Positions 25,347 to 49,652 of a DNA stretch of 64,000 bases are shown piece by piece (the first letter of the stretch is position 1; each line of letters opens with the position of its first letter). This stretch comes from an uncultured bacterium (lineage in GTDB: Bacteria > Joyebacterota > Joyebacteria > Joyebacterales > Joyebacteraceae). The notes beneath the pieces are model-generated. The model was not told the origin of the DNA, did not search any database, and saw only the letters and a list, made by a program, of their open reading frames with translations. The DNA lies in NCBI GenBank assembly GCA_964516845.1, contig CAZEXP010000001.1, positions 124,665 to 188,664 of the forward strand, read 5' to 3'. The translations under genes were made by a program, and so were the position numbers.

Positions 25347-26291
25347 ATGACGGTGACGATACTGATCCCGCTCTACAACGAAGAGGGGAGTCTCCGGGAA
25401 CTCGTGGAGGCCATCTCGGCGGCGATGTCGCCAACGGGCTGGGCCTGGGAGATCCTCTTCATCAATGACGGGAGCACGGACGGGTCCCTCGATATACTTC
25501 GTGAGCTGTACGACTCGCGGGACAACATCGAGGTCATCTCTTTCGGACGGAACAGCGGGAAGGCGGCCGGCCTGGCCGTCGGGTTCGCCGAGGCGCGGGG
25601 CGACGTGGTCATCACGATGGACGCGGACCTTCAGGACGATCCCGCCGAGATCCCCGGAATGATCCGGATGCTCGATGAGGGATACGACCTCGTCTCCGGC
25701 TGGAAGAAGGAGCGGCACGACCCACTGTCGAAGCGCATCCCGTCGAAGCTCTTCAACGGCGTCACACGGATGGTCAGCGGGCTGACGCTTCATGACATGA
25801 ACTGCGGCCTGAAGGCCTACCGGCGAGACGTCGTCAAGACCATCAGGGTCTACGGCGAGCTCCACCGGTACACGCCGGTCCTCGCACACTTTGCGGGTTT
25901 CCGTGTGACCGAGACCGTGGTCCGTCACCACGCAAGGAAGTTCGGTCAGTCGAAGTACGGCATCGAGCGGTTCGCGCGAGGCGGCTTCGATCTTCTCACG
26001 GTGCTCTTCCTGCGGCGCTATCTCACACGACCTCTCCACCTGTTCGGGATGCTCGGTTCCATCCTTTTCGCGGGCGGGTTCGGTATCGGCGTCTATCTCA
26101 CGGTCGTGAAGATCATGGGCGGAGCGATCGGCAGACGCCCGCTCCTGACCCTCGGCATCCTGCTGATGGTCGTCGGTGTCCAGTTCGTGTCGCTCGGGCT
26201 CCTCGGCGAGATGATCGCCAATCTCAGGAGCACCGGGATCACGTATCCTATCCTCGAGCACCTCAAGCCGCGCGGAGGGAGTCGTGGTTGA
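25347..26291 (+). CDS. Polyprenyl-phosphate sugar synthase, GT2 (GtrB/ArnC/DPM1-like) with C-terminal TM helices
   Basis: ILIPLYNEEGSL...INDGSTDGS...DADLQDDP...KYGIERF plus two C-terminal TM segments, the typical GtrB architecture. Confidence 0.8.
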   Translation: MTVTILIPLYNEEGSLRELVEAISAAMSPTGWAWEILFINDGSTDGSLDILRELYDSRDNIEVISFGRNSGKAAGLAVGFAEARGDVVITMDADLQDDPAEIPGMIRMLDEGYDLVSGWKKERHDPLSKRIPSKLFNGVTRMVSGLTLHDMNCGLKAYRRDVVKTIRVYGELHRYTPVLAHFAGFRVTETVVRHHARKFGQSKYGIERFARGGFDLLTVLFLRRYLTRPLHLFGMLGSILFAGGFGIGVYLTVVKIMGGAIGRRPLLTLGILLMVVGVQFVSLGLLGEMIANLRSTGITYPILEHLKPRGGSRG

Positions 26292-27474
26292 TGCGCCGAC
26301 CTCCGAGACCAGGGGTCTGACGGACGAGGCCGCTCGAATCGCGATCGTCGGGCCGGCCTATCCGCTGCGCGGCGGAAACGCGCTCTTCGTGGCGCATCTG
26401 CTCGATGCGCTACGGCAGGACCACGACGTGTACGTCGTCTCCTACAGCCGTCTCTACCCGGGGCTGCTCTTTCCCGGCAAGACGCAGATGAACGTCAGCC
26501 GTGACCCGGTGAAGACGACGCCATCGCGGCAGCTGGTTGACTCGATCAATCCCATCAGCTGGTTTCGGACAGCCCGATGGATCTGCGCGCCGAAACGTCG
26601 TCCCGACCTCGTCGTGTTCACGTGGTGGAACCCGTTCTTCGGACCGGCTCTCGGCGCGATCGCGCGACTTGTGAAGCGTGGATGCGGAGCCGGAGTGGTG
26701 TTCGTCGCTGAGAACGTGGTGTCACACGAGAACCGTTTCGTCGATCGCTTCCTGACTCGGTACGCTCTGGCGTCCGCCGACTACTTCCTCGTTCTCTCCG
26801 GGGTCGTGGCCCGGCGGATTCAGTCGCTCTTTCCGGGCGTCCCGGTGCGGCAGGCAGCGCTTCCCATCTATGACTGCTATCGCGCCGATGAGATCGACCG
26901 TGATGCGGTCCGGTCCAGACTCGGGCTGACGAAACCGACGATCCTCTTCTTCGGATACGTCCGAGCCTACAAGGGGCTTCAGTATCTGCTCGAAGCCATG
27001 CCGGCCGTTCTCGAGAAGCACGATGTCCAGCTTCTGGTCGTCGGCGAGTTCTACGATGAACAGCAGCGCTACGAACGGCTGATCGCCGCGCTTGATATCG
27101 GCGAGGCGGTCACCGTCGTCGCGGAGCACGTTCCCGATGAGGCTGTCGGCGAGTACTTCGTGGCGTCGGACGTCGTGGCACTCCCGTATCTCTCCGCGAC
27201 CCAGAGCGGGATCACCCAGATAGCGTACGCCTTCGGACTTCCCGTCATCAGCACGAACGTCGGCGGTCTTCCCGAGGTAGTCAAGGACGGGAGAACGGGC
27301 TATGTTGTAGAGTCGGGCAGCGCTGCGGCGCTCTCGGCCGCCATCGTCCGCTTCTTCGAGGGCGACGAGCAGGCGAAGCTGACACGCGGCGTCGCCGAAG
27401 AGGCGCGGGCCGACCAGGCGGGGGAACTCATGCGTCGCTCGATCGAGGACTTCCTCGAACTCAACAGGGGGTAG
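26284..27474 (+). CDS. Glycosyltransferase family 4 (GT-B)
   Basis: C-terminal GT4 block (YLSATQSGITQIAYAFGLPVISTNVGGLPEVV). Confidence 0.8.
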   Translation: MVDAPTSETRGLTDEAARIAIVGPAYPLRGGNALFVAHLLDALRQDHDVYVVSYSRLYPGLLFPGKTQMNVSRDPVKTTPSRQLVDSINPISWFRTARWICAPKRRPDLVVFTWWNPFFGPALGAIARLVKRGCGAGVVFVAENVVSHENRFVDRFLTRYALASADYFLVLSGVVARRIQSLFPGVPVRQAALPIYDCYRADEIDRDAVRSRLGLTKPTILFFGYVRAYKGLQYLLEAMPAVLEKHDVQLLVVGEFYDEQQRYERLIAALDIGEAVTVVAEHVPDEAVGEYFVASDVVALPYLSATQSGITQIAYAFGLPVISTNVGGLPEVVKDGRTGYVVESGSAAALSAAIVRFFEGDEQAKLTRGVAEEARADQAGELMRRSIEDFLELNRG

Positions 27475-27475
27475 C

Positions 27476-28384
27476 ATGCCGGACCCGGCGGTCACTGCGG
27501 TTGTGATCAACTGGAACGGGATACCCGTGATCGAGGCATGTCTCGCGTCGCTTCTCGACTCGACGTATGAGCGGCTCTCGGTTCTGGTGGTCGACAACGC
27601 CTCCGAGGACGATTCGGTCTCCGTCATCCGAGAACGCTACCCGGCCGTCCGCATCGAAAGTACAGGGAGGAATCTCGGCTACGCCGGGGGCGCGAATCAC
27701 GGCCTCAGGGCCGCGCGCGCTTCCGGGGCGGCGTATGTTCTCCTGATGAATAACGACGTGGAGATCGCGCCGGATGCCGTTGGGGAGCTGGTTCGGGCCG
27801 CCGAGGAACACCCGGACGCCATGCTGCTCGGTCCGAAGATCTACTACTTCGACCGGCCGGACGTCATCTGGTCCGCCGGTGGGGTCGTGTCGTTCTGGAC
27901 CGGCAACATCCGGCACCTGGGGATCCGGGAGCAGGACCACGGGCAGTTCGACGAACTCCGCGAGGTCGACTATCTGACGGGGTGCGCCGTGCTGCTCCCG
28001 GCGCGGACGCTCGAGACGGTCGGCGAGCTCGATGAGACGTACTACATGTACAACGAGGACACCGACTGGTCGACCCGCGTCATACGGTCGGGCGGAAAGG
28101 TCCTCTACGTGCCGTCGGCCCGGCTCTGGCACAAGGTGTCGTCGAGTTCGGGAGGGGGCCTGACGAGCTACAAGATCTATCACCGGATACGCAGCACGCT
28201 GGCGTATTTCAGACGATATGCGGCGTGGTACCAGTGGTTCGGCATCCTGCCCGCGACAGCGGCGCGGACGATCACGTTCGCCTTTGCGCAGATAGCGCAC
28301 GGCGAGGGGGGGCGCGTCTCAGCGCTCATTCGCGGGATAGCCGACGGCGCCACGGGGAGGCGGAGGGGCTACACGAATGACTAG
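27476..28384 (+). CDS. Glycosyltransferase family 2 (rhamnosyltransferase-like)
   Basis: VVINWNGIPVIEACLASL...VVDNASEDDS...LLMNNDV...TGCAVLL. Confidence 0.8.
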   Translation: MPDPAVTAVVINWNGIPVIEACLASLLDSTYERLSVLVVDNASEDDSVSVIRERYPAVRIESTGRNLGYAGGANHGLRAARASGAAYVLLMNNDVEIAPDAVGELVRAAEEHPDAMLLGPKIYYFDRPDVIWSAGGVVSFWTGNIRHLGIREQDHGQFDELREVDYLTGCAVLLPARTLETVGELDETYYMYNEDTDWSTRVIRSGGKVLYVPSARLWHKVSSSSGGGLTSYKIYHRIRSTLAYFRRYAAWYQWFGILPATAARTITFAFAQIAHGEGGRVSALIRGIADGATGRRRGYTND

Positions 28385-29783
28385 GCAAACGAGGAAACGT
28401 ATCAGATGGGCACGACCGTGGACACGCGTGCTTTCGGCGCTGCTGCTCGTCGTCGCGATCGCGGGACCGGGACTGCTCTCCGGATGCGCGAGCGACGGTG
28501 GAGGAGACGGACGACCACGAGTCATCATCTTCGGGGTCGACTCCGCGAACTGGAACGTGATGACGCCGATGCTCGAGGCGGGAGAGCTCCCGAATATCGC
28601 GCGACTCGTGCGTCGGGGCTCGTACGGCGTGCTCAAGAGCGGAATACCGATCCAGTCACCCCAGATGTGGACCTCGATCGCCACGGGCGTCGTGCCCGAG
28701 CGGCACGGGATCACCGGGTTCACGGCGGAGATACCAGGGACTGACAACGAGCTTCCGGTGACCAACAACATGCGTCGGGTCAAGGCCTTCTGGAACATTC
28801 TCACCGACGAGGATGTCTCGGTGGGCATTGTGGGGTGGTGGCCCAGCTGGCCGGTCGATGAGGTGAACGGCTTCATGATCGCGCAGCGTGCGTGGCCGAT
28901 GAACTGGTCCGTGCACGGCGTGCCCTTCGGCGCGGCGCGGGACCGGGACGGACGGTTGATCGTCCAGGATTTCCCCGGCCGGACGTATCCCGAAGGCCTC
29001 TACAAGGACTTCGAGCAGTTCGTGATGACCGAGGAGGACGTGACCCTCGATGAACTCAACCGCTTCTTCGCCGACTCGCGTTTCACGGATCACAGGAAGC
29101 AGTTCCACGCGCGGTGGGTCTACGCCAAGGACAGGACCTTCGCGGATGCGGGTCTCCACTACTACACACAGGAGAGACCCGAGGTCTTCGCGGTCTATCT
29201 CCAGGGAACCGACGTGGTCTCACACTACTACTGGGGCTACCAGACGGCGGAGGGCTTCACCGTGTCGCCGGAGGACGAGCGCATGTACGGCGCCGTCGTA
29301 CGCAACTACTACGCGTTCATCGACGACGTCATCGGCGCGTTCCTCGACGTGGCGCCGGAAGAGACCGCCGTACTGGTGATCTCGGACCACGGGTTCGAGA
29401 CGAAGCGTGATCTGAAGGTGCTGTGGGAGCGCGGCGAGGCCATCAGGACCCTTGAGGGCAACAAGGATGTTCCGTGGGACCACGCGATCGACGGCGCCAT
29501 CATCTTCGCAGGACCGGGCATCAAGCGCGGCGTGCCGACGCCCGATATGTCGGTCGTCGACGTCATGCCGACGCTGATGGCCTACCTCGGTCTGCCTGTG
29601 GCGGAGGATCTCGACGGCCGTCCCGCTCTTGCGCTCTTCGAGGACGACTATCTCAGCGCTCACCCGATCCAGTGGGTCGCGTCATACGAGACGGGGGAGG
29701 CGCGCGGCGAGGACGGCCCGATAGCCTCGCCGATGGATGAAGGCATCAAGGAGAAGCTGCGGTCGCTGGGCTACATCGAGTGA
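28377..29783 (+). CDS. Alkaline-phosphatase-superfamily / type I phosphodiesterase-nucleotide pyrophosphatase-like lipoprotein
   Basis: Lipobox LLSGC. VIIFGVDSANWNVM...LPNIARL N-terminus and VISDHGFE metal-site motif. Confidence 0.7.
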   Translation: MTRQTRKRIRWARPWTRVLSALLLVVAIAGPGLLSGCASDGGGDGRPRVIIFGVDSANWNVMTPMLEAGELPNIARLVRRGSYGVLKSGIPIQSPQMWTSIATGVVPERHGITGFTAEIPGTDNELPVTNNMRRVKAFWNILTDEDVSVGIVGWWPSWPVDEVNGFMIAQRAWPMNWSVHGVPFGAARDRDGRLIVQDFPGRTYPEGLYKDFEQFVMTEEDVTLDELNRFFADSRFTDHRKQFHARWVYAKDRTFADAGLHYYTQERPEVFAVYLQGTDVVSHYYWGYQTAEGFTVSPEDERMYGAVVRNYYAFIDDVIGAFLDVAPEETAVLVISDHGFETKRDLKVLWERGEAIRTLEGNKDVPWDHAIDGAIIFAGPGIKRGVPTPDMSVVDVMPTLMAYLGLPVAEDLDGRPALALFEDDYLSAHPIQWVASYETGEARGEDGPIASPMDEGIKEKLRSLGYIE

Positions 29784-29806
29784 TCGTGTTCCAACCCGGG
29801 AGAGAC

Positions 29807-30916
29807 ATGGACACGAGCGTACGATTCGATTGCAGGCACTATGTCGGCGACCGCCCCTGCGTGTGGGGCGGACGCTGCGACGGATGCGCGCATTACAGCG
29901 GCATGGGGACACGGATCCTCGTCATCAAGCTCGCCGCGGCCGGTGACGTCCTGCGCGCAACAGCCGTGTTGCCACCGCTGAAGCGCAAGCATCCGGAGTC
30001 TCACATCACGTGGGTGACGGACTCCGTTGCGATGCCGTTCCTCGAGCACAACCCGTACGTGGACCGCGTCATGCCCTTCGGCTTCGCGTCCCACGTGGAA
30101 CTCGCGGCACAACGTTTCGATGAGGTCATTTGTCTCGACAAGGAACCCCGCGCCGCAGCGTTCGCCGGAGATGTCGCCGCCGACCGCCGCCTCGGCTACG
30201 GACTGACGGAGTGCGGTACTGTCACGCCGATAGACGAAGGGGCGCGGTACGACTTCGATCTGGGTCTCTCGAACGAACGCAAGTTCCGGGAGAACACGCG
30301 GAGCGCCCCGGACATCTACTGCGAGGTGGCGGGTGTCGAGTATGAGGGCGAGCCCTACCTGCTCGCGCTTCCGGACGCGTCGCTCTCCCATGCTCGTGAC
30401 TTTCTCGCCGGGCTAGCGGTCGCGGACCCGCTCGTCGGACTCAATGTCGGCGCCGGCGGTGTGTTCGCCAACAAGGCATGGACGGCCGAGGGATACGCCG
30501 AGCTTGCGCAACGAGTCGTCTCCGAACTCGGCGGCGTCTGTGTGGCGCTGGGCGGTCCCGATGATCGCGAGCGGATGACGCGCGTCGTGGAGTTGTCGGA
30601 CGGGGCGGCGCTCGACGGAGGCATCCACTCTCTTCTGGACTTCGCCGCGATCGTGGCGCACCTGGATGCGCTGGTCACGGGAGACACGATGGCCCTCCAC
30701 ATCGCGGTCGCCGTCGGCGTCCCGGTCGTCGCTCTGTTCGGCCCGACGGTCCCCCAGGAGATCGAGGTCTACGGCAGAGGACGCAAGGTGGTCTCGCCGG
30801 CCGATTGCGCGCCCTGCTACCTGCGCAGCTGTGACCGAAGTCCCAGCTGCATGGAACAGCTTCCCACTGACGCCGTAATGGATTCGCTGCGCGAGGTTCT
30901 GGCGGAGGACGTCTAG
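29807..30916 (+). CDS. ADP-heptose:LPS heptosyltransferase-like glycosyltransferase family 9
   Basis: ILVIKLAAAGDVLRATAVLPPLKRKHP...ITWV GT9 N-terminus and C-terminal GxTGDTMALHIAVAVGVP. Confidence 0.8.
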   Translation: MDTSVRFDCRHYVGDRPCVWGGRCDGCAHYSGMGTRILVIKLAAAGDVLRATAVLPPLKRKHPESHITWVTDSVAMPFLEHNPYVDRVMPFGFASHVELAAQRFDEVICLDKEPRAAAFAGDVAADRRLGYGLTECGTVTPIDEGARYDFDLGLSNERKFRENTRSAPDIYCEVAGVEYEGEPYLLALPDASLSHARDFLAGLAVADPLVGLNVGAGGVFANKAWTAEGYAELAQRVVSELGGVCVALGGPDDRERMTRVVELSDGAALDGGIHSLLDFAAIVAHLDALVTGDTMALHIAVAVGVPVVALFGPTVPQEIEVYGRGRKVVSPADCAPCYLRSCDRSPSCMEQLPTDAVMDSLREVLAEDV

Positions 30917-30941
30917 AGCCGCGCTGAGCAGAGAGAGGGCT

Positions 30942-32729
30942 ATGAACCCGACCGCACGATCAACACAGGCTCCCCGGAAGGCCGCCGCACTCGATGTGGC
31001 CGTGTTCGCCGCGGCGTACGCGCTTCTCGTGGCCGCCGTGCTGGGAGCGCTCGGACTCCGCACGAGCGGTTTCGCATTCACGCTCGCGCTTCCTCAACTG
31101 CTGCCTCTCGTGCTCTCGAGCTTCCTGGCATATCTTCTCGTCGGGTTCGTGGTTCTGGCCCCCTCGCTGCTGAGGCGCACCCGTGGGACGAGCAGGCGGA
31201 CCGGGTTCCGCCTCGCGTTCGCCATGACGACGGTGACGGTCTGGGTATCTCTCACCGTGAGCTTCCTTCCCGTGAAGGGGTCGGAGACATTCGTGCGCGC
31301 TGGAACCCTGACGACGTTCCAGCTCAACATGCTGGGGCTCGCCGCCGTGTTCGCCGCCGGACTCCTGGCAGGATGGATCACATCGTTTCTCCTGCTGAGA
31401 CTGCTGCGCGCCCTCAACGCTTCGCTGACGCCGAACGGCACGCGGATGATCGGATTCGGGCTTGCCGGATTGGCCCTGGTCGCGCTGCTGGTCGGCCCCT
31501 CGGTACGGGCCCGGAGCTTCTCGCATCTGGCGCTGCCCGACGGCGGAACATGGAACGAGCGTCCCAGAGTCGCGGTGGTCGGCGTGGACGGGTGTGATTG
31601 GGAGATGCTCGGTCCGCTTGTCGAGGCGGGGGAACTCCCGAACTTCGCGCGTCTGATGGAGCATGGCTCGTACGGCCCGCTGCTCTCGATGGACCCGATG
31701 ATCTCTCCGAGGATATGGACGACCATTGCGACCGGCGAGACGCCGGAGGAGCACGGCATCATCGGTTTCACCAACGCCGCGGGTGTCCCGGTCAACGCGC
31801 GGATGCGACGCTCCCCGGCGGTATGGGAGATCGTCTCTGCATACGGCGGTGTGTCCGCTGTGAACGGCTGGTACGTGACCTGGCCGACCGACGACGTGCG
31901 CGGCTACATGGTCTCGGACCGCGTTCACAGCCTTCTGCGAGGCGCCACACAGATCTGGCACTCCATCGAGGGCGAACCGACGAACGAACGTCTCGCCCGG
32001 TTCGGGCAATTCACATTCGACAGCGGGTACAAGCGGTTTCAGAGAACGGAGACCGCCTATCAGCAGAACCGCATCGTCGACGAACCGCTCCGCTGGGGAT
32101 ATCTCAGGGATACGATCTACGGTCGCCTTTCCCACGAGCTCCTGCCGCGCTACGAGCCGGATCTCTCGATGGTCTACTTCCGCGGCATCGATTTCGTCCA
32201 GCACTTCTTCTGGCAGTACACGGATCGGGCTGATTTTCCCGGGGTCACGGATGCTGAGGCGCGTGAGTACGGGGAGGTCATCGCGAACTACTACCGGTAT
32301 CAGGACGGGCTTCTCGGGCGTCTGTTGGACGATCTCGGGGATGACGTGAGCGTTCTCCTCGTATCGGACCACGGCTTCACCGCGCGCGTTCTCCTCGACC
32401 CGAACATGCCGGAGCTGACGGGCATGCACGATCGCCGCGGAGTCATCATCGCATCGGGTCCGGCCTTCGCCGACGCGGGCTACGTGGAGGGAGCGACGAT
32501 TCTCGATGTGGCTCCGACGACGCTGGCCGTGCTCGGCCTTCCGATAACCCGGACGATGGATGGTCGGGTCCTGACGGAGCTCCTCGCTCCGGAAGATCTT
32601 GAACGCTACCCCGTGCAGCTTGTCGAGAGCTACGGCACGGCTCTGGGCCGCTCGGTCGAGACCGGGACGGGTTCCAGCATGGATGAGTCCATCAAGGAAC
32701 AGCTCAGGTCGCTCGGCTACATCCAGTGA
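30942..32729 (+). CDS. Alkaline-phosphatase-superfamily / phosphodiesterase-like protein with N-terminal ~5-TM domain (paralog of 28377..29783)
   Basis: Hydrophobic N-terminal ~200 aa. Then VAVVGVDGCDWEML...LPNFARL, VSDHGF, and the same C-terminal tail (IKEQLRSLGYIQ vs IKEKLRSLGYIE). Confidence 0.7.
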   Translation: MNPTARSTQAPRKAAALDVAVFAAAYALLVAAVLGALGLRTSGFAFTLALPQLLPLVLSSFLAYLLVGFVVLAPSLLRRTRGTSRRTGFRLAFAMTTVTVWVSLTVSFLPVKGSETFVRAGTLTTFQLNMLGLAAVFAAGLLAGWITSFLLLRLLRALNASLTPNGTRMIGFGLAGLALVALLVGPSVRARSFSHLALPDGGTWNERPRVAVVGVDGCDWEMLGPLVEAGELPNFARLMEHGSYGPLLSMDPMISPRIWTTIATGETPEEHGIIGFTNAAGVPVNARMRRSPAVWEIVSAYGGVSAVNGWYVTWPTDDVRGYMVSDRVHSLLRGATQIWHSIEGEPTNERLARFGQFTFDSGYKRFQRTETAYQQNRIVDEPLRWGYLRDTIYGRLSHELLPRYEPDLSMVYFRGIDFVQHFFWQYTDRADFPGVTDAEAREYGEVIANYYRYQDGLLGRLLDDLGDDVSVLLVSDHGFTARVLLDPNMPELTGMHDRRGVIIASGPAFADAGYVEGATILDVAPTTLAVLGLPITRTMDGRVLTELLAPEDLERYPVQLVESYGTALGRSVETGTGSSMDESIKEQLRSLGYIQ

Positions 32730-32799
32730 CCGGCCTGATCGGAACCGTGATCCCCCTGGAGGGAAATTGACCTCACGCGTCGCACTGCATCGCGCCGGA

Positions 32800-34047: not shown

Positions 34048-34084
34048 CGGGGCTCGCGCAAACCCAACGACGAGAGAGGAACCC

Positions 34085-37209: not shown

Positions 37210-39365
37210 CGGGGGACGGAGCGGAGCTCGATCTCTCGATCATCATCGTCGGGTACAACAGCGCCGAGCCGCTGGCGGCGTGCCTGCGATCGCTCGCGGA
37301 GTGCCGGGACATCGTGTCTCGAGAAGTCCTCGTCGTCGACAACGCATCGGCCGACGACACAGGAGAGATGGTCCGGCGCGACTTTCCCTGGGCTGAGTAC
37401 CACGAGAATGCGGCGAACGTCGGCCTGTCGCGCGCGGTCAACCGCGGCATCAGGGCATCGCGCGGACGGCACATCCTCGTTCTGAACCCGGACATCGAGG
37501 CGCGGCCCGGCTCGCTCGACGCACTGGTGGGATTCATGGATGCCACGCCCGGGGCGGGACTCGCGGGTGCGAAACTGATCAACACGGACGGCTCGCTTCA
37601 ACTCTCGTGCAGGGCGTTCTACACGTTCTGGACGCTGCTGCTGCGGAGGACGTTCCTCGGGAAGCTGTTCCGGAGGAGCGGGGCGATCCGACGACATCTG
37701 ATGCTCGACTACGACCACGAGTCCCCGCGTGAGGTGGACTGGGTTCTCGGAGCCTGCATGCTCGTTCGGCGGGCGGCCATGGCCGACGTCGGGGCGATGG
37801 ACGAGCGGTTCTTCCTGTACTTCGAGGACGTGGACTGGTGCTACCGGATGTGGCGCGGAGGTTGGAAGGTCTGGTACGTGCCGGACGCCGTGATGGACCA
37901 TCGCCACGCGCGCGCCAGCGCTCGGCCGGGCTTGAACAAGCTGCTGATCGCGCACCTCATCTCGCTCCTGCACTTCTATGAGAAGTGGGGAGGGGTCATC
38001 TACCGGATGAAGAAACACCGACGCATCCTCTTGACGGCGTTAAGCCTTCTGGCCGACCTCGTGGCTGTCAACGCCGGGTTCATTCTCGCCTATGCGCTGC
38101 GTTCGAGTCTGCGCGGCCTGCTTACGAAACCGCTCTTCGGTCTCGGGGTCTACGACACCTTTCTTATCTTCGCGAACATCGTGTTCATCCTCGTGTTCGC
38201 ATTCTTCGGTCTCTACGGCGGTCGGCGCGACCGCGAGACGGGCGCGGATGTCGCCTTCCGCGTGACACGGGCCGCCGTCGTGGCGGGCGTCGTGCTGATG
38301 GCGAGTACGTTCCTGACCTCCACAACGGTCTACTCGCGGCTTCTCGTCGGGGCTTTCTGCGTGATCGTCGTCCTGCTCGACATGGCCCTTCGGGGGGTTA
38401 TCCGGTGGGTACAGAACCAGGCCCGCGCGGGCAGGTTTGACCTCACGCGCGTGGCTGTCGTCGGCACCGGCCCCACGGCAACGCTCCTCGCCGAGCGTAT
38501 CGCCGCCGCCCCCGAGCTCGGGTACGATCTGGCGGGTCTGGTCTCCGAGCGTCCACGGGACCCGGGAGCGGGTGACCGGCTGGCGATCCCTGTCATCGGA
38601 AGTCTCGATGAACTGCCGGACCTCATCGAGCGACAGAGGATCGAGGAAATCATCTTCGCGGAGCCGGAGCTGTCGAGCACCGAGATCGCCGATTTCCTCA
38701 TTCGCGCCCGCCGGAGCACGGTCGACGTGAAGATGGTCTCCGACCTCACGAATCTGCTGACGCAACGCGCGCGCGTCGAGGAGTTCCTCGATGTTCCGAT
38801 CGTCGCCTTCGAGCGCGAGGCGCTCCTCGGAGCGCAAGCGGGTGTCAAGCGGGTCGCCGACCTGGTCGGAGCAGCGGCCCTGCTCGTGGTGTCGAGTCCC
38901 GTGCTCGCCGTGGCGGCGCTTGTCGCCGGAGCGGGCTCGCGGCGGAGTCTGTTCTCACGCGGACAGCGTGTCGGACTTGCGGAGCGGTCATTCGCCAAGT
39001 GGGGACTTCGGGAACAGGAGCCTCCCGGCGCGCTCCGTCGCTACGTCGAGCGGCACGGCCTCTCCCGGATGCCCGAACTCCTCAACGTCATCACGGGTGA
39101 GATGAGTCTCGTCGGCCCTGCACCCCTGACGGCGTCGGAGGCAACCGGGTGTACTGCGCGCGAGCGCGTGCGCTTCGACGCACGCCCCGGCGTCACCGGA
39201 CTGGCTCAGGTCGCATCAGCGGCCCACGCGGTGGGTGACGGCGGGATGGCGCTTGACGCCTACTACGTACAGAACTGGTCGCTGGGCGGAGATGTGCGGA
39301 TCATCATGCGGTGGTGGCTTCTGTGTCTGGGTGGCCGCTGCGCTCGGCGACACGAGGATGTGTGA
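37161..39365 (+). CDS. Fusion protein: N-terminal GT2 glycosyltransferase + C-terminal polyprenyl glycosylphosphotransferase (WbaP/PglC-type bacterial sugar transferase)
   Basis: GTG 37161 after RBS gggagg. GT2 block (IIIVGYNSAEPL...VVDNASADDT...LNPDIE). Then 4-5 TM helices (MKKHRRILLTALSLLADL...). C-terminal Bac_transf motif (PELLNVITGEMSLVGPAPL). One uninterrupted reading frame. Confidence 0.75.
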   Translation: MAGVATEARAHPAKKIAGDGAELDLSIIIVGYNSAEPLAACLRSLAECRDIVSREVLVVDNASADDTGEMVRRDFPWAEYHENAANVGLSRAVNRGIRASRGRHILVLNPDIEARPGSLDALVGFMDATPGAGLAGAKLINTDGSLQLSCRAFYTFWTLLLRRTFLGKLFRRSGAIRRHLMLDYDHESPREVDWVLGACMLVRRAAMADVGAMDERFFLYFEDVDWCYRMWRGGWKVWYVPDAVMDHRHARASARPGLNKLLIAHLISLLHFYEKWGGVIYRMKKHRRILLTALSLLADLVAVNAGFILAYALRSSLRGLLTKPLFGLGVYDTFLIFANIVFILVFAFFGLYGGRRDRETGADVAFRVTRAAVVAGVVLMASTFLTSTTVYSRLLVGAFCVIVVLLDMALRGVIRWVQNQARAGRFDLTRVAVVGTGPTATLLAERIAAAPELGYDLAGLVSERPRDPGAGDRLAIPVIGSLDELPDLIERQRIEEIIFAEPELSSTEIADFLIRARRSTVDVKMVSDLTNLLTQRARVEEFLDVPIVAFEREALLGAQAGVKRVADLVGAAALLVVSSPVLAVAALVAGAGSRRSLFSRGQRVGLAERSFAKWGLREQEPPGALRRYVERHGLSRMPELLNVITGEMSLVGPAPLTASEATGCTARERVRFDARPGVTGLAQVASAAHAVGDGGMALDAYYVQNWSLGGDVRIIMRWWLLCLGGRCARRHEDV

Positions 39366-39385
39366 GCCTGACAGGAGGTACTGAT

Positions 39386-40729
39386 ATGCACCGAGGGACT
39401 ATCGCGCTCATCGCCATCATCTTGTGTCTCGCGGGCTCCGCGTCCTCCGCGGACTGGACGTCTGTGAGCTTCCCTAACAATGCCAAGATCTGGGATATGG
39501 GGATAGACGGGAGCGTTCTCTGGTTCTCCACGCAGGGACAGGGGCTGGTCGGGTACGATGACGGGAGCTGGGTGACGCACACGCACAGCGACGGAGGGAT
39601 ACGGAGCGACAGCTGGAACTACGGGCTGCTCGTGAGCTCTTCCGGCGACAAATGGGTAACCCGCGACGGGAGCGAGACGGTCGACCGTGTCAGTGACAAC
39701 GGAACCTTCTCGTACAAGGACGACGACGTCTGGACCTACTACAGCTACCCGGAGCAGCTGGCGAACAGGCGCGTCTTCTCGTCCGCCGAGGACTCCGAGG
39801 GACGAGCGTGGTTCGGCATGCGAGATGAGAATCTGAGCCGGACCGGTATCCTCGAGCTGTTCATCGACAATTCGGACACGACCTCGGCCGACGATGAGTG
39901 GTTCCACTACGACAACGTGTGGACGCCCGACTCGACGAGCTTCGGCGGCGACGACGTTCGCACGCTCATGGTCGACGATCAGGACCGGCTCTGGATCGGA
40001 TACTACGGTTCGGGGATCGACCTCTGGGAGTACGGGAACCCGCGCGTCTTCGCGGACGACAGCTGGACGCACTTCGCCGAGGAGGACGGTCTGCCCGAGG
40101 ACGACATCCACACGTTCTGGCAGGGAAGCGACGGAACGATCTGGGCCGGGACGCTTGGCGGACTGGCAGCATATGATGAGCAGAGCGGCACCTGGACGGT
40201 CGTGTCCGGCCTTCCGGGGAGCCAGGCGCGCGCCGTCTCGGAGGACGCCCAGGGCCACATCTGGGTCGGAACGAACGACGGCGTCGCGATGCTCTACGCG
40301 AACCGGGCGGTCGCCTTCACCTACACGACCGAGGACGGTCTCGCGGACGAGCAGGTTGACCACATCGCTATCGACGTGTCCTCGGGCAACGTCTGGGCCG
40401 TCACGAAGGACAACGTGGCGGATGAAACGACGTTGAACGTGTTCCACTCGGGGATCGTCGAGGGAACGGGAAAGCTGTTCGTCTATCCGAACCCCTGGCG
40501 TGAGGGAGTTTCCGAGAATCAGATACAGCTCTACGGCGCGCCCGAGGGATCGCTCGTCGAGGTCTTCGATGTGACCGGTCAGAAGATGGTCGAACTCCCG
40601 CCGTCGGAACCGTACATCTGGGATTCGCTGGACGAGTCACTCAACGAGGTTCCGAGTGGTGTCTATCTGATCCGCGTCGAAGTACCGGGAGGCGAGGCGC
40701 AGATCGTCAAGCTGGCCATCATCAGATAG
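39386..40729 (+). CDS. Secreted beta-propeller (Reg_prop-like repeats) protein with T9SS-type C-terminal sorting domain
   Basis: RBS aggagg. Signal peptide. Repeated G-x-LW/IW-x-GT-x-GL-x-YD units. C-terminus LFVYPNPW...GVYLIRVEV...IVKLAIIR resembles the Por secretion-tail domain. Confidence 0.7.
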   Translation: MHRGTIALIAIILCLAGSASSADWTSVSFPNNAKIWDMGIDGSVLWFSTQGQGLVGYDDGSWVTHTHSDGGIRSDSWNYGLLVSSSGDKWVTRDGSETVDRVSDNGTFSYKDDDVWTYYSYPEQLANRRVFSSAEDSEGRAWFGMRDENLSRTGILELFIDNSDTTSADDEWFHYDNVWTPDSTSFGGDDVRTLMVDDQDRLWIGYYGSGIDLWEYGNPRVFADDSWTHFAEEDGLPEDDIHTFWQGSDGTIWAGTLGGLAAYDEQSGTWTVVSGLPGSQARAVSEDAQGHIWVGTNDGVAMLYANRAVAFTYTTEDGLADEQVDHIAIDVSSGNVWAVTKDNVADETTLNVFHSGIVEGTGKLFVYPNPWREGVSENQIQLYGAPEGSLVEVFDVTGQKMVELPPSEPYIWDSLDESLNEVPSGVYLIRVEVPGGEAQIVKLAIIR

Positions 40730-40784
40730 GCGCGGTGGAACAAGCGATCGAGCGTTGATACCCTGGACAACACGAGGATGATCC

Positions 40785-42248
40785 ATGAGCAACGAGGCTG
40801 GGAAGACACGAACACTGATCGTTGGCGCGGGCTCGGCCGGTGGAATGGTCGCGGAGGAGATGCGCCTCAGGCCCGAGCAGGGCTACGCTGCGGTCGGGTT
40901 CCTGGATGACGATACCGCGAAGATCGGGACGCAGGTCGCAGGACTTCCCGTACTCGGCAAGACCTCCGACCTCGTCCGGATCGTCAGGGACTCCGGGATC
41001 GATCAGGTCGTCATAGCGATCCCGTCCGCATCGGGATCCTCCATTCGGAGCGTGGTGGAGCTGTGTGAGGAAGCCGGAACGCCGGCGAAGATCGTTCCGG
41101 GGGTCTGGGAGATCATCCTCGGCGACGTCACGATCAGCCAGCTTCGGCAGGTGGTTCCCGAGGACCTGCTCGGGCGCGAGACGGTGGTGCTCGACTGCGA
41201 GGAGATGACCGGGTACCTGAGCGGTCGCACCGTCCTTATCACGGGAGCGGGGGGATCGATCGGATCGGAACTCGCGCGGCAGGTCGCCTCGTTCGGTCCC
41301 GCCAAGCTGATCATGATGGGTCGTGGTGAGAACAGCATCTACGAGATCGACCAGGAGATCGGCCAGGACTACCCGGACGTCGATCGTCACCTCGTCATCA
41401 GCAGCATCTCCGACCCGATGGCGGTCGAGGTGCTCTTCCGGGACGAGCATCCGGAGATCGTTCTCCACGCCGCGGCGCACAAGCATGTCCATCTGATGGA
41501 GGCCTTCCCGGACGAGGCCGTGAAGAACAACGTGATGGGAACGCGGATCCTCATCGACGCCGCCGTCCGCTACGGCGCCGACCGCGTCGTCATGCTGTCC
41601 ACGGACAAGGCCGTGCGACCCAGAGGCGTCATGGGCGCTTCGAAGCGTGTCGCGGAGTCGATCATGATCGAACGGGCCTCGCGGGGGAGCGCGACCAAGC
41701 TCATCGCCGTCCGGTTCGGCAACGTCCTGGGCAGCCGCGGGAGCGTCGTCCCGCTCTTCCGTCAGCAGATCAGTCACGGAGGTCCGGTGACCGTGACTCA
41801 CCCGGACGTCACACGGTACTTCATGACGATCCGCGAGGCCGCGATGCTCGTTCTCGAGGCGGGTCTCACGGGCCGGGGTGGGGAAATCTTCGTGCTCGAT
41901 ATGGGCGAACCCATGCGCATCGCGGACCTCGCCACGCACCTGATACGGCTCTCCGGGCTCGAGCCCGGCAGGGATATTGCTATTGAGTTCACGGGCCTGC
42001 GGCCGGGGGAGAAGCTCCATGAGGAGCTGTGGTACTCGGACGAGACCCTCCTTGAGACAGGCAGAAAGAAGGTGATGGTCGTCCAGTCTCCGAAGGACGC
42101 CGTCGTCCCGGACCTCTGGGACCGCGTCAGGCGGCTCGAGGAGTTCGCAGAGCACTGCGACCGGGTCGGCGTCATCCGGGAGCTTGCCGACATCTTCCCC
42201 GACATGAAGGTAAGGACGGGCCATGACGACGAAGACGCCGGCCGCTGA
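40785..42248 (+). CDS. UDP-sugar 4,6-dehydratase (CapD/PglF/WbpM family)
   Basis: Two Rossmann regions. VLITGAGGSIGSELARQ and downstream SDR catalytic motifs. Confidence 0.85.
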   Translation: MSNEAGKTRTLIVGAGSAGGMVAEEMRLRPEQGYAAVGFLDDDTAKIGTQVAGLPVLGKTSDLVRIVRDSGIDQVVIAIPSASGSSIRSVVELCEEAGTPAKIVPGVWEIILGDVTISQLRQVVPEDLLGRETVVLDCEEMTGYLSGRTVLITGAGGSIGSELARQVASFGPAKLIMMGRGENSIYEIDQEIGQDYPDVDRHLVISSISDPMAVEVLFRDEHPEIVLHAAAHKHVHLMEAFPDEAVKNNVMGTRILIDAAVRYGADRVVMLSTDKAVRPRGVMGASKRVAESIMIERASRGSATKLIAVRFGNVLGSRGSVVPLFRQQISHGGPVTVTHPDVTRYFMTIREAAMLVLEAGLTGRGGEIFVLDMGEPMRIADLATHLIRLSGLEPGRDIAIEFTGLRPGEKLHEELWYSDETLLETGRKKVMVVQSPKDAVVPDLWDRVRRLEEFAEHCDRVGVIRELADIFPDMKVRTGHDDEDAGR

Positions 42249-43422
42249 GGGCGGCACGCCGGTCAGAGACAACTTCCTGGCGTTCGCGCGCCCTTGCATC
42301 GAGGCGGCGGACATTGAGCTCGTGGTCGAGACGCTGCGGTCCGGGTGGCTCACCGTAGGACCCAGGACACACGACTTCCAGCGCCGAGTAGCCGAGTACG
42401 TCGGCGTCGAGTCCGCGGCCGCGCTGAACTCCTGCACCGCAGGGCTGCATCTCGCCATGGTGGCGCTGGGCATCGGTCCCGGTGATGAGGTCATCCTGCC
42501 GACGATCGACTTCGTGTCCGGAGCGAACACGGTCTGCCATCTTGGGGCCACACCGGTACTCGTCGACGTTGACGCCGAGACGATCTGCGTCACTCCGAAC
42601 ATATTCGAAGCCGCCATCACGGACCGGACGCGTCTGCTGATGCCGGTCCACTTCGCCGGAAGACCGTGCGACATGGACGGCATCATGGAGCTCGCCCGGA
42701 CCCGCGGCATCAAAGTGCTCGGAGACGCCGCGCACGCCATCGGCGCCGACATCGGCGGACGACGCATCGGGAGCATGGCCGACGCGACGTCCTTCAGCTT
42801 CTACGTCACCAAGGGGATCACGACTGGTGAGGGCGGCGCCGTCACATCGACGGACCCGGACCTCACGGCGCGGATCGCGCTACTCGGGCTCCATGGCATG
42901 AGCAGCGACGCCTGGAAGCGCTACAGCGAGAGAGGGCCGTGGTACTACGAAGTGCTCGAAGCAGGGTATAAGTGCAACATGAGCGACATGCAGGCAGCGC
43001 TGGGCCTGTCGCAGATCGATCGCGTGGACACGTTCCGTGAGCGTCGTCGCGAGATCGCCGACGCCTACACCGCCGCGTTCGCGCAGGACCCGAGCATCAC
43101 GCCGCCCGCCGCGTACCTCGACGGACATCACGCGTGGCATCTCTATCCGATCCAGATCGACGTGGACGCTCTCTCGATCGACCGCGACCAGTTCATCAAA
43201 CAGCTGGTCGAGGAAGGTATCGGGGTCAGCGTTCACTTCATTCCGGTTCACTACCATCCGTACTACCGCAAGCTGCTCGGCCTGGAGCGTGGCAGCTTCC
43301 CTGTGGCGGAACACTACTTCGAACGCGCCGTCTCGCTCCCCATCTATCCCTCGATGACTTCGGGCGATGTGGACGACGTGATCGAGGCGGTGCGCAAGCT
43401 GACCTCGTATCACAGGAGGTAG
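42223..43422 (+). CDS. DegT/DnrJ/EryC1/StrS-family PLP-dependent sugar aminotransferase
   Basis: GDEVILPTIDFVS and the PLP-lysine region SFSFYVTKGITTGEGG. Confidence 0.85.
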   Translation: MTTKTPAAEGGTPVRDNFLAFARPCIEAADIELVVETLRSGWLTVGPRTHDFQRRVAEYVGVESAAALNSCTAGLHLAMVALGIGPGDEVILPTIDFVSGANTVCHLGATPVLVDVDAETICVTPNIFEAAITDRTRLLMPVHFAGRPCDMDGIMELARTRGIKVLGDAAHAIGADIGGRRIGSMADATSFSFYVTKGITTGEGGAVTSTDPDLTARIALLGLHGMSSDAWKRYSERGPWYYEVLEAGYKCNMSDMQAALGLSQIDRVDTFRERRREIADAYTAAFAQDPSITPPAAYLDGHHAWHLYPIQIDVDALSIDRDQFIKQLVEEGIGVSVHFIPVHYHPYYRKLLGLERGSFPVAEHYFERAVSLPIYPSMTSGDVDDVIEAVRKLTSYHRR

Positions 43423-43427
43423 CCGTC

Positions 43428-44408
43428 GTGGAGTACACGGTCACCTCACATGTGGATGCAAGGTCGTGGGACGACCTCGTCGCGGGGGACCGTTCAGCGA
43501 GCTTCTTCCAGAGCCGCGTCTGGTCCGAGGTGCTCTCGAGCACACTCCCGGACCACGAGCCGCTCTTCGTCGCGGCGCATCGTGGTGACGAACTCGTCGC
43601 CGGGATTCCCGTCATCCGGCGCAGCCGCGGTCCCGTGATGGTCGTCGAATCGATGCCGTTCGGAACCTACGGCGGCGTGCTCACCACCGACAGGGCGCCG
43701 TCGCAGGCCGCCGCGGAGCTCGTCCTTGCGTTGCTGGACGCCGTCGACGGGATCACGGTCGGGCAGATCCGCATCGTGGATTTCAACGGACGACTCGCGG
43801 ACGCTTGCGACGGATTCGAGCCCGTGACAAGCGAGGCGCAGGTGCTCGATCTCGACCGCCCGTACGATGATGTCTGGGCGGGATTCCGCTCGTCGGTGCG
43901 CAACAAGGTCCGCAAGGCCGAGAAGGCCGGCGTGACGATTCGCGAGGCGCGCGGGACGGATGACTTTCATGCGTATCATCGGCTCCTCGAGGAATGCTCC
44001 GAACGTTGGGGAACGACCAACTCGTTTGATGAGGACTTCTTCGCCGCCCTCGCCGAGAGCGGCAGCGACGCGGTCCAGATGTGGCTCGCGGAGTACGATG
44101 GAGAGATCATAGGCGGAGATCTGAACTTCGTCACTGCTACCTCGGTGTTCAACTGGGGCAATGTCTCGCACCGGGAGTCCGCCAGCCTCGGCACGGTCCC
44201 GCTCCTTCATGCGAACGCCATCGAGGACGGTTGTCGCCGCGGACTGACGACGTACAATCTCGGCGGAAGCGGCGGGATCGACGCCGTCGCCAGGTTCAAG
44301 TCGGCATTTGGAACGAGGTGTGTTCCGTACACCGAGTACGTGCTCGAGAAGGGATGGATGAAGCTCGGGAAGCGTCTCAGGGGACGCATCGAAGGAGACG
44401 CAGCGTGA
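43428..44408 (+). CDS. FemAB/BioF2-like GNAT-fold acyltransferase
   Basis: GTG 43428 with RBS aggagg 8 nt upstream. FemAB-family-like length and pattern (NKVRKAEKAGV...YHRLL...YNLGGSGG). Family call is tentative. Confidence 0.55.
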   Translation: MEYTVTSHVDARSWDDLVAGDRSASFFQSRVWSEVLSSTLPDHEPLFVAAHRGDELVAGIPVIRRSRGPVMVVESMPFGTYGGVLTTDRAPSQAAAELVLALLDAVDGITVGQIRIVDFNGRLADACDGFEPVTSEAQVLDLDRPYDDVWAGFRSSVRNKVRKAEKAGVTIREARGTDDFHAYHRLLEECSERWGTTNSFDEDFFAALAESGSDAVQMWLAEYDGEIIGGDLNFVTATSVFNWGNVSHRESASLGTVPLLHANAIEDGCRRGLTTYNLGGSGGIDAVARFKSAFGTRCVPYTEYVLEKGWMKLGKRLRGRIEGDAA

Positions 44409-45727
44409 ACAGCCGAGCCAGAACGCTCCTCATCATCGCGGTCGCCATCCACGCCGTCATGCTCGCGTCGCTCGTCCACCCTGGACACTTCCTCAACCCG
44501 CTCTTCCCGGAGGCCGTGCACACCATCGCGACGGTCTACGATGAAGGAGTGGCGGTCGGCACACTGGAGGGCGGCGGCCTCGGCGCCGATTTCTTCGCGT
44601 TCTACCAGGCCGGCAGGTATGTCCTCAATGGTGATGACATCTACCGACGCCCGATGGACGATCCCGAGCGCGTCGTGCCGTATGGCTATTTCTATCGCTA
44701 CCTCCCCTTCGTCGCGTACACGCTCGGGGTCGCGTCCAACGCGGTTCCCCCGTGGACGGCGTACTGGCTCTGGGTGCTCCTTGTCGAACTCGTGCTCCTC
44801 TGGTGCATCCTGCTGACGTATCGCGCCGTGCGGGACGGTTGGCTCTTCGCGATGCTGGCGACGATGTGGCTCGTCTTCACGCCGTTCTACATGGAGCAGT
44901 ACATGGGTCAGCTCTCGTTCGTAATGGGCGCGCTGATCTTCGCCATGGTACTGGCCCACGGCCGCGGTCGGGTGAAGCGGTTCGACTGGCTCTGGATCGC
45001 GAGCGTGGTCATCAAGCACATGACCGTCCTGTTCATCCCGATCATGGTCCGCCTGAGGAGATTCGGGACCGTCGCGCTTGCGGGGCTCCTTCTCGGACTG
45101 ACCGCCGTGCCGTATCTGCTGCTTCGCGACAGCGGTGTCGGCGACTTCACGCATGACAATTTCAATCTGACACTCTACCCGTACTCCGGGAATCTCGGCG
45201 CTCTCGCGCTGGTGATGGTGCTCAAGGCGCGCCTCTTGCCGATGGCGTCGGAGATCGGTTTCCAGCTGGGGCCGATCCGCATGACGATCACGCGGATGGC
45301 GATACTCGGGACGATGGCGGTTCCGACACTCGCGGCCCTCTGGGCGACGTTCCGAAGGCGTCCGTTCGATCTCGTGGAGTCGGTCAGCCTCTGGACGATG
45401 GTCTACTTCTTCGTGTTCCGGGAGATATGGGAGTACCACTATGTGCTCCTGATACCGATCTTCGTGCTGCTCTACATGAAGACACGCGCGCGCGTCCTCT
45501 GGTGGATGTACGCGCTGGCGGCGATGCCGACGCTGTTCATTCTCTACGACGTCCCGGCCGCCAAGAGTCCTGAGGTGTACTGGAGCGCGTGGGAACACAT
45601 CCTGAACCACGGCATGAAGGTTGCACCGCTGGTCTGGCTGTTCGTCTGGGTCGCGTGGGGCTTCTACCGGCGCCATGTCACACGGACGGAGCGAGGATCG
45701 ACCAACGATCTGGCGGTCGTTCTCTAG
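44405..45727 (+). CDS. DUF2029 / GT87-like polytopic membrane glycosyltransferase (polyprenyl-P-sugar dependent, GT-C fold)
   Basis: GTG 44405 in GTGA overlap. Periplasmic-loop motif DFFAFYQAGR and about 10 TM helices. Confidence 0.6.
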   Translation: MNSRARTLLIIAVAIHAVMLASLVHPGHFLNPLFPEAVHTIATVYDEGVAVGTLEGGGLGADFFAFYQAGRYVLNGDDIYRRPMDDPERVVPYGYFYRYLPFVAYTLGVASNAVPPWTAYWLWVLLVELVLLWCILLTYRAVRDGWLFAMLATMWLVFTPFYMEQYMGQLSFVMGALIFAMVLAHGRGRVKRFDWLWIASVVIKHMTVLFIPIMVRLRRFGTVALAGLLLGLTAVPYLLLRDSGVGDFTHDNFNLTLYPYSGNLGALALVMVLKARLLPMASEIGFQLGPIRMTITRMAILGTMAVPTLAALWATFRRRPFDLVESVSLWTMVYFFVFREIWEYHYVLLIPIFVLLYMKTRARVLWWMYALAAMPTLFILYDVPAAKSPEVYWSAWEHILNHGMKVAPLVWLFVWVAWGFYRRHVTRTERGSTNDLAVVL

Positions 45728-45758
45728 CACGTCGCCGTGAAACGACTGGAGTCGAGTG

Positions 45759-48091: not shown

Positions 48092-48098
48092 CTTTCCA

Positions 48099-49651: not shown

Positions 49652-49652
49652 C

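Follow-up and report, generated by a model that had tools for sequence, protein, structure and literature searches.

In multi-component transmembrane glycosylation, a polyprenyl-phosphate sugar is produced by a GT-A glycosyltransferase, carried across the membrane by a flippase and used on the outer side by a GT-C glycosyltransferase, which passes the sugar on (PMC8035078). Several GT-A/GT-C pairs can be present in one organism: Lactococcus lactis contains the pairs CsdAB, CsdCD and CsdEF, which share one flippase, and Bacillus subtilis contains CsbB/YfhO as well as the YkcBC and YkoST pairs (PMC8035078). The CsbB/GtcA/YfhO and GtlA/GtcA/GtlB systems are responsible for the glycosylation of teichoic acids in Bacillus, Staphylococcus and Listeria (PMC8035078; PMC5836110). 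In Rhizobium, RgtE makes bactoprenyl-phosphate-galacturonic acid (GalA), and the GalA is then transferred in the periplasm (PMC7663294). The locus described here, whose enzymes may form two such relays, belongs, to judge by the names attached to its homologues, to an uncultured bacterium of Candidatus Eisenbacteria, a phylum of the Fibrobacteres-Chlorobi-Bacteroidetes (FCB) group. It lies in a 64,000-nucleotide stretch of DNA, hereafter the window (GenBank assembly GCA_964516845.1, contig CAZEXP010000001.1, positions 124,665 to 188,664 of the forward strand). Coordinates are those of the window, and the features lie on its + strand unless stated otherwise.

A single cluster of the window encodes two synthases of family GT2, one membrane-anchored and ArnC/GtrB-like (GT2a) and one soluble and DPM1-like (GT2b), together with two GT-C enzymes, one of the YfhO type and one GT87-like. 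Since the two GT2 enzymes are of the polyprenyl-phosphate kind and both GT-C enzymes carry a conserved Asp in the first loop, two periplasmic transfers from lipid-linked monosaccharides are the natural reading. In this mechanism each GT2 would use a nucleotide sugar to charge polyprenyl phosphate with one sugar. Once flipped across the membrane, the lipid-linked sugar would serve a GT-C as donor for a transfer in the periplasm, with a glycan, a lipid or a protein as acceptor. That the four enzymes form two relays is considered probable, a judgement that concerns the scheme as such and not which synthase serves which transferase. A first-pass annotation had proposed two relay pairs and had named these four genes together with a UPF0104 flippase-like one. 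The five genes are real: an AAGGAG- or GAGAGG-type motif lies upstream of each start, and homologues of each protein, numbering from dozens to hundreds, lie on independent contigs, which excludes chance. The two synthases and the two GT-C enzymes are indeed present, whereas their pairing is not settled by sequence, the gene neighbourhoods pointing both ways.

GT2a (25347..26291; PF00535 112.6 bits, scanned as 25278/25347-26291) contains two C-terminal membrane helices, located by a hydropathy scan at about residues 236-257 and 269-287, and a DADLQDDP motif at residues 93-100. It aligns with the solved ArnC structure 9bhc over residues 3-293, membrane hairpin included (E 8e-59), and with the solved GtrB 5eke (E 5e-32). 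The two helices and the full-length ArnC alignment bear out the earlier assignment to the GtrB/ArnC type with C-terminal transmembrane helices. An identity as ArnC orthologue was rejected, as the NCBIfam ArnC model NF007986 gives 205.5 bits against a cut-off of 529 and the Arn partner genes are missing; the Pfam maps of the window contain no arnA, arnB, arnD, arnT, arnE or arnF.

The architecture of GT2a is that of the CsbB/GtcA/YfhO system, in which a membrane-anchored GT2 makes the C55-P-sugar and the YfhO GT-C transfers it outside. On the other hand, the window comes from a diderm FCB-group bacterium, which lacks teichoic acids, and the cluster contains Wzx and UPF0104 proteins in place of a GtrA/GtcA-type flippase. 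The PgfS/PgfM1/PgfE/PgfM2 system of protein glycosylation in Streptococcus mutans likewise unites a GtrB-like synthase, an epimerase and YfhO-type GT-C enzymes in one operon. The NCBIfam PgfS model gives 149 bits for GT2a and 61 bits for GT2b, and the YfhO-type protein of the window matches the PgfM1 and PgfM2 models at its C-terminal end only. However, none of these scores comes near its equivalog cut-off (500, 1400 and 1500 bits). The systems also differ in their acceptor proteins, which are unrelated, and in the other GT-C, a GT87-type enzyme in the window where S. mutans has a YfhO-type one.

The gene adjoining GT2a encodes an NAD-dependent sugar-nucleotide 4-epimerase (24374..25330), which a sequence search of the structure database places nearest to UDP-glucuronate (UDP-GlcA) 4-epimerases. 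Its best solved relatives include 6zl6 and 6zla (E 5.5e-87), MoeE5 gives E 2.4e-67, and no NCBIfam equivalog cut-off is reached. PMC7984243 deals with the UDP-glucuronate 4-epimerase of the solved relatives. Given this resemblance and the position beside GT2a, UDP-galacturonate is plausible as the donor of GT2a, whose sugar is possibly galacturonic acid. In the ArnC/ArnT and RgtE plus RgtA-D/F systems, which place 4-amino-4-deoxy-L-arabinose or GalA on lipid A and core, the likeness begins with GT2a itself, nearest to ArnC. The gene resembling UDP-GlcA 4-epimerases fits the bactoprenyl-phosphate-GalA logic of RgtE, and the cluster of the window also has a GT9 enzyme of the lipopolysaccharide-core type. 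In contrast to these systems, the window has no ArnT/GT83-type GT-C and no ArnA, ArnB, ArnD, ArnE or ArnF, and its galacturonic acid is a prediction.

GT2b (36496..37209; PF00535 107.4 bits) is a DPM1/Ppm1-type protein of 237 amino acids with a DADFSHDP motif and no membrane helix or hydrophobic segment in the hydropathy scan. The nearest solved relative is the Pyrococcus dolichol-phosphate-mannose synthase 5mlz (E 3e-35, residues 1-228), in agreement with the soluble DPM1-type synthase annotated before. At the level of sequence, both GT2a and GT2b are shown to belong to the polyprenyl-phosphate glycosyltransferase branch of GT2.

The YfhO-family GT-C (34085..36499, 804 amino acids) passes PF09586 with 52.7 bits against a cut-off of 28.5. 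The match falls in two stretches, of which the C-terminal one is the best, and the homologues carry precomputed PF09586 matches. The similarity to Firmicute YfhO is weak and greatest at the C-terminus. An alignment of 41 sequences leaves D64, W88, G95, P97 and R288 invariant; D64 is assigned to the first outward-facing loop because it comes after membrane helix 1 and the N-terminus is positively charged. Neither a single-sequence nor a profile search found a solved relative in the PDB. Since the PDB sequence searches were empty for the YfhO-type, GT87-like and UPF0104 proteins, a fold search was needed. The AlphaFold model of the YfhO-type protein (pLDDT 90.5, pTM 0.91), compared with the PDB by Foldseek, has only GT-C enzymes as top matches (AftD, STT3, EmbB/C, PglB and Pmt4).

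The GT87/PimE-like GT-C (44405..45727, 440 amino acids) passes PF09594 with 35.7 bits against a cut-off of 25 (open reading frame 44081-45727 scanned); it has no NCBIfam match, and a profile search of the PDB gave no match. The loop motif DFFAFYQAGR announced by the first-pass annotation lies at residues 62-71. Among 26 homologues, D62, Y67, K204, E343 and H345 are invariant and W342 is near-invariant. By order and spacing, D62, Y67, K204, W342 and H345 match D58, Y62, K195, W319 and H322 of PimE, in which D58 and Y62 are catalytic and K195, W319 and H322 bind the polyprenyl-phosphate leaving group (PMC12041525). The AlphaFold model (pLDDT 88.7) has PimE as its top fold match (9dm5 and 9dm7, E 2e-5, TM-score 0.61 normalised to the query and 0.69-0.71 normalised to the target). 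The next matches are glycosylphosphatidylinositol mannosyltransferase I, ALG6 and ArnT, all of which, like PimE, use polyprenyl-monophosphate sugars. With both family models passed and the conserved Asp present in both GT-C enzymes, the YfhO and GT87-like assignments hold. The combination of a DPM1-type synthase with a GT87 enzyme is that of mycobacteria, and the window shares it with Ppm1/PimE, as it shares the PimE fold. The differences are a structure-based identity of 16-17%, the absence from the window of a phosphatidylinositol mannoside pathway, and the conserved neighbours of the GT87-like gene, which are a FemAB-like acyltransferase and DegT and not a synthase.

The partners of each enzyme were compared in other genomes. 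A scan with a 12-sequence YfhO alignment gave 79 loci across FCB-group phyla, whose open reading frames were assigned by best BLAST hit to the window proteins. Home-made hidden Markov models were dropped for the typing of the GT2 genes, since the models built from first-pass hits mixed ArnC-like with DPM1-like GT2s. Loci were taken as distant when their YfhO had less than 50% identity, and at least 6 kb of upstream sequence was needed for the GT2a count. Of 39 distant loci, 21 carry a GT2a homologue (45-59% identity) on the YfhO strand and upstream of YfhO; as a rule, the counterparts of the window genes for the GT4 (26284) and the GT2 (27476) come next. Where both flanks were available (35 distant loci), 15 had GT2a only, 6 had both synthases, 1 had GT2b only and 13 had neither. 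In the 15 loci with GT2a only, the flanks that were fetched (up to 10 kb per side) contained no GT-C-like protein other than YfhO. These counts fit the earlier coupling of the GtrB-like synthase with YfhO.

The ArnC-like GT2 is associated with YfhO broadly across the FCB phyla, probably as an ancestral state. This breadth, along with the higher PgfS score of GT2a, counts for a pairing of GT2a with YfhO. The TMEM260 and GT87 (PimE) families are known to use mannose from DPM1-type synthases (PMC12041525; for TMEM260, PMC10214176), which counts for a pairing of GT2b with the GT87-like enzyme, as does the mycobacterial example of a DPM1-type synthase with GT87. The favoured pairing, given an even chance, is that GT2a feeds YfhO through the adjoining Wzx, while the GT87-like enzyme receives from GT2b a hexose, possibly mannose.

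Several observations weigh against this pairing or against the two-relay scheme itself. GT2b immediately follows YfhO in the window, its start overlapping the YfhO stop codon (36496-36499), and GT2b homologues (56-64% identity) come after YfhO in 8 of the 57 distant loci with enough downstream sequence. The Chloroflexi locus L007 has, directly before a YfhO-Wzx fusion, a GT2 with 50% identity to GT2b and 28% to GT2a, and it lacks an ArnC-like GT2 in the vicinity. Sister Eisenbacteria-like clades encode a TMEM260-like (PF11028/DUF2723) GT-C of about 850-950 amino acids with C-terminal TPR repeats (for example L039 3060-5615, L069 764-3607 and L051 1039-3750). Its gene is directly upstream of GT2a or of an epimerase-GT2a pair in L039, L051, L054, L069, L070, L084 and partly L032. 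The epimerase-like gene stands between the two in L039, L051, L069 and L070, and UPF0104 precedes the TMEM260-like gene in L039, L054, L069 and L070. The sister-clade loci sequenced between FemAB and GT4 (L039, L054, L069 and L070) have no GT87 gene there, and in the clade of the window GT87 is present and the TMEM260-like gene absent. Between clades, then, one GT-C type alternates with the other, and the TMEM260-like GT-C appears to replace the GT87-like one of the clade of the window. A TMEM260-like enzyme beside GT2a, in clades without GT87, favours a pairing of GT2a with GT87. A literature search turned up no characterised bacterial TMEM260-like member.

Such arrangements would be expected if the partners were swapped, GT2b feeding YfhO in a Wzx-YfhO-GT2b module and GT2a feeding the GT87-like enzyme with UPF0104 and the epimerase, or, in the sister clades, the TMEM260-like GT-C instead. 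This exchange is judged unlikely. The overlap of YfhO with GT2b was rejected as evidence of pairing, because overlaps of 4 bases are pervasive in the cluster and this one is nothing special. Moreover, GT2b is glued to the phosphoglycosyl transferase gene downstream, which it always abuts, and is parted from YfhO in L019 and L084. The 15 of 35 two-flank loci with an ArnC-like and without a DPM1-like GT2, and the DPM1-type mannose used by the TMEM260 and GT87 families, also speak against the exchange and in favour of GT2a with YfhO.

The GT87-like side of the preferred pairing is met by further facts of the same adverse kind. The nearest GT87-like genes outside the phylum (L001-L004, 31-33% identity) lie in compact operons at about 4000-11500 that contain, in this order, a Wzx (with or without a GT4), a FemAB-like protein, DegT, a radical SAM/SPASM protein, a methyltransferase and the GT87-like enzyme. 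The FemAB-like acyltransferase is thus a conserved neighbour of the GT87-like genes in L001-L004, and no polyprenyl-phosphate-sugar synthase occurs within 10 kb of them. Remoter metagenome loci place the GT87-like gene in heterogeneous contexts, often among metabolic genes; one of them (L127) has a divergent DPM1-like neighbour. As separate observations, the L001-L004 operon is kept beside a SurA-like gene, and in L109 a DUF362/LarA-like gene adjoins a distant GT87-like gene. To the same side of the balance belong the score of GT2a under the ArnC equivalog cut-off, a literature search that turned up no envelope chemistry for Candidatus Eisenbacteria, and the composition of the cluster, which has no GtrA-type flippase gene, no unassigned space between its genes, and no Wzy or WaaL.

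The gene immediately upstream of YfhO encodes a Wzx-family flippase (32767..34047, with a start at 32767 TTG or 32800 ATG; PF01943). The first-pass annotation mentioned neither this flippase nor the larger 23-gene cluster. The multi-pass protein adjoining YfhO belongs to the Wzx family in 9 of the 9 distant-locus neighbours tested, and the Chloroflexi encode YfhO-Wzx fusions (Wzx/Polysacc_synt) of about 1300 amino acids (L007 8001-12029; proteins P0093, P0109, P0110 and P0119). Of the two candidate lipid flippases of the cluster, Wzx and UPF0104, the former is the more likely carrier of the YfhO donor as judged from sequence comparison. A Wzx-type flippase takes part in the monosaccharide relay of GacI/GacJ/GacK/GacL, which builds the N-acetylglucosamine side chain of the group A Streptococcus carbohydrate (PMC8035078), and this is comparable to the adjacency or fusion of Wzx and YfhO. 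On the other hand, GacI needs the small membrane protein GacJ, of which no counterpart was identified in the window, and GacL is not a member of YfhO or GT87.

Wzx is present and Wzy and WaaL are absent from the window, so one GT-C could handle a Wzx-flipped oligosaccharide. Under this explanation YfhO would transfer, ligate or polymerise en bloc an oligosaccharide and would not be a monosaccharide decorator; GT2a may start this oligosaccharide on polyprenyl monophosphate, and the conserved GT4, GT2 and GT9 enzymes may lengthen it. The constant Wzx neighbour of YfhO, fused in the Chloroflexi, speaks for it, as does the string of an ArnC-like GT2, a GT4 and a GT2 (with or without a GT9), followed by Wzx-YfhO, that recurs in Marinimicrobia, KSB1, Ignavibacteria and others. 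When the flanks fetched for many such loci were compared by BLAST with the phosphoglycosyl transferase fusion of the window, no phosphoglycosyl transferase came up. The 64-kb window encodes no Wzy, no WaaL/PglL-type protein and no further multi-pass GT-C, according to the Pfam mapping and a search for these, and the oligosaccharyltransferases STT3 and PglB are among the best fold matches of YfhO. However, STT3 is a generic fold match of GT-C enzymes, many genomes have their Wzy and WaaL genes at another place, and Wzx-type flippases such as GacK serve monosaccharide relays too (PMC8035078). All characterised YfhO-family enzymes transfer single sugars, according to PMC8035078 and PMC5836110. 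The transfer of an oligosaccharide by YfhO is therefore regarded as quite improbable.

If YfhO did act in that manner, Eisenbacteria may have added a second relay made of GT2b and a TMEM260-like or GT87-like GT-C. A review of 2025 states that the oligosaccharyltransferase and the ligase of Bacteroidota O-glycosylation 'remain undiscovered' (PMC12871550). That the YfhO-type family is the candidate oligosaccharyltransferase or ligase of envelope and protein glycosylation in FCB and Bacteroidota has a very small likelihood. A monosaccharide relay from GT2a through Wzx to YfhO is preferred to these possibilities.

The UPF0104/LPG_synthase_TM flippase-like membrane protein (23307..24377) passes PF03706 with 147 bits against 33.4 (open reading frame 23151-24377 scanned) and the TIGR00374 'flippase-like domain' with 97 bits against 43.2, so the family named by the first-pass annotation is confirmed. 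It has multiple hydrophobic segments in the hydropathy scan and about 210 homologues, and a single-sequence search of the PDB gave no match. In the window it is one gene away from GT2a. The gene before it encodes a soluble protein of 279 amino acids (22471..23310) with no Pfam or NCBIfam match, conserved as partner of UPF0104. Over its full length the protein aligns with the Methyltransf_11-like product of the gene that immediately precedes UPF0104 in L087 and L088 (27% identity, E 5e-32). In Cloacimonetes-type loci the UPF0104 homologues have about 40% identity and are preceded by a homologue of 22471. UPF0104 ends there an operon (L087 4853-11020; L088 6656-10993) with PcrB, a CpsB-like phosphatase, a short-chain dehydrogenase and the methyltransferase-like gene. 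A polyprenyl synthase and UbiA precede PcrB in L087, and these operons contain no GT2 or GT-C genes.

An isoprenoid-glycerol lipid may for this reason be the substrate of this UPF0104 subfamily. It is also uncertain whether UPF0104 takes part in any relay, since elsewhere it is conserved among genes of isoprenoid-lipid metabolism. An alternative, judged less likely than not, is that UPF0104 and 22471, perhaps with the epimerase, stand outside the relays and modify and flip a membrane lipid, being in the cluster by genomic association only. The pair conserved in L087 and L088 without GT2 or GT-C is consistent with this, as are the characterised or proposed roles of UPF0104 proteins in membrane lipids, namely MprF and GpgF, the latter for GlcN-phosphatidylglycerol (PMC12713373; bioRxiv 10.1101/2022.03.11.483950). 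On the other hand, UPF0104 sits inside the Eisenbacteria glycan cluster, one gene from GT2a and, in sister clades, directly beside a GT-C, and in Euryarchaeota the UPF0104 domain is fused to GT-A glycosyltransferases (bioRxiv 10.1101/2022.03.11.483950).

The two predicted relays are embedded in a larger glycan cluster of 23 genes, co-directional and gap-free, which spans 29 kb (19236-47818). The window has about 65% GC, almost every gene is on the + strand, and the + strand open reading frames have a third-position GC of 0.75-0.85. According to the Pfam mapping, the gene order runs from housekeeping genes (SMC, FtsY, a riboflavin operon and NusB) to the glycan string, a hairpin and a microcompartment locus. 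With the candidate starts, 4-base overlaps occur at many gene junctions of the cluster, and their frequency fits one long operon-like unit. Promoter and terminator scans gave nothing convincing within the cluster; the sole standout is a GC-rich hairpin of 16 bp at its 3' end (48056..48090, + strand, from the terminator-like scan), which is likely the terminator that closes the cluster.

The first gene of the cluster encodes a GT2 glycosyltransferase (19236..20225; PF00535 88.9 bits). A radical SAM/SPASM protein follows (20222..21331, longest open reading frame from 20057; PF04055 and PF13186), whose start overlaps the stop codon of the preceding gene and which has a weak homologue in the distant GT87 operons L001, L002 and L004. 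A DUF362 protein (21328..22467, longest open reading frame from 21040; PF04015 163.8 bits) has an ATGA overlap with the stop codon of the radical SAM gene. These two genes (20222-22467) stand at the head of the cluster, upstream of the pair of 22471 and UPF0104. After GT2a comes a GT4 glycosyltransferase identified by Pfam (26284..27474), which is found beside GT2a across FCB phyla and co-occurs with it in the distant loci, and then a GT2 glycosyltransferase (27476..28384; Pfam and synteny), the third member of the conserved GT2a-GT4-GT2 string. Next are a predicted periplasmic lipoprotein of the alkaline-phosphatase superfamily (28377..29783; Phosphodiest, PF01663 108.5 bits) with an LLSGC lipobox-like signal, a GT9 glycosyltransferase of the heptosyltransferase family (29780..30916; PF01075 73.8 bits), and a membrane-anchored Phosphodiest-family protein (30942..32729; PF01663 101.4 bits) for which hydropathy indicates about 5 N-terminal helices and an outward-facing domain. 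The architecture of the latter is LtaS/EptA-like, but its family differs. Homologues of both Phosphodiest proteins occur in the Marinimicrobia loci L057 and L065, and the two proteins may act on phospho-substituents in the periplasm, by adding or removing them.

Several genes downstream of YfhO and GT2b, together with the GT2, GT4 and GT9 enzymes, provide a cytoplasmic assembly line. An initiating phosphoglycosyl transferase is fused to a GT2 domain (GT2, CoA_binding_3 and Bac_transf by Pfam; 37161..39365 from the candidate start, longest open reading frame from 36972). A secreted Reg_prop beta-propeller protein with a signal peptide (39386..40729; PF07494) has a weak match, under the cut-off, to PF18962, the C-terminal sorting domain of the type IX secretion system (19.9 bits); the mid-cluster position of its gene is kept in Eisenbacteria-like loci. 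The assembly line continues with a PglF-type sugar-nucleotide 4,6-dehydratase (40785..42248; PF02719 364.5 bits), a DegT-family sugar aminotransferase (42223..43422; PF01041 410 bits) and a FemAB-like/Acetyltransf_6 acyltransferase (43428..44408 from the candidate start, longest open reading frame from 43134; PF13480 and PF02388). Beyond the GT87-like gene, a GT4 glycosyltransferase (45756..46871) and a GT2 glycosyltransferase (46868..47818 from the candidate start, longest open reading frame from 46595), both identified by Pfam, end the cluster.

Outside the cluster, the microcompartment locus (48005-54828) lies directly 3' of the glycan genes and encodes a PTAC phosphotransacylase, EutN/CcmL, an aldehyde dehydrogenase, an RnfC/Nuo51-like protein, a BMC shell protein and a class II aldolase. 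Together these genes resemble those of the Planctomycetes/Verrucomicrobia type of sugar-degrading microcompartment. A SelA (selenocysteine synthase) gene occurs at 6206-7645, and therefore the organism probably uses selenocysteine. On the - strand, an open reading frame of 469 amino acids (4506-5915) is without a Pfam match; its third-position GC is high, and its N-terminus has a signal-like helix.

Systems of multi-component transmembrane glycosylation are well known from Gram-positives, mycobacteria and Proteobacteria, and the present locus widens their range to Candidatus Eisenbacteria, an FCB-group phylum without cultured members. It is an extension of known principles, since multiple GT-A/GT-C pairs and Wzx-type relay flippases are documented (PMC8035078). 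What is unusual in its details is the YfhO enzyme in a diderm, the alternation of GT87-like and TMEM260-like enzymes and the pair of UPF0104 and 22471. The locus predicts two periplasmic sugar additions, one of them possibly of galacturonic acid, with D64 as the catalytic residue of the YfhO-type enzyme and D62 as that of the GT87-type enzyme, and an alternation of the TMEM260-like and GT87-like enzymes between sister clades. The pairing of Wzx and YfhO with an ArnC-like GT2, widespread in the FCB phyla, is a testable candidate for periplasmic glycan-transfer steps that are as yet unassigned.

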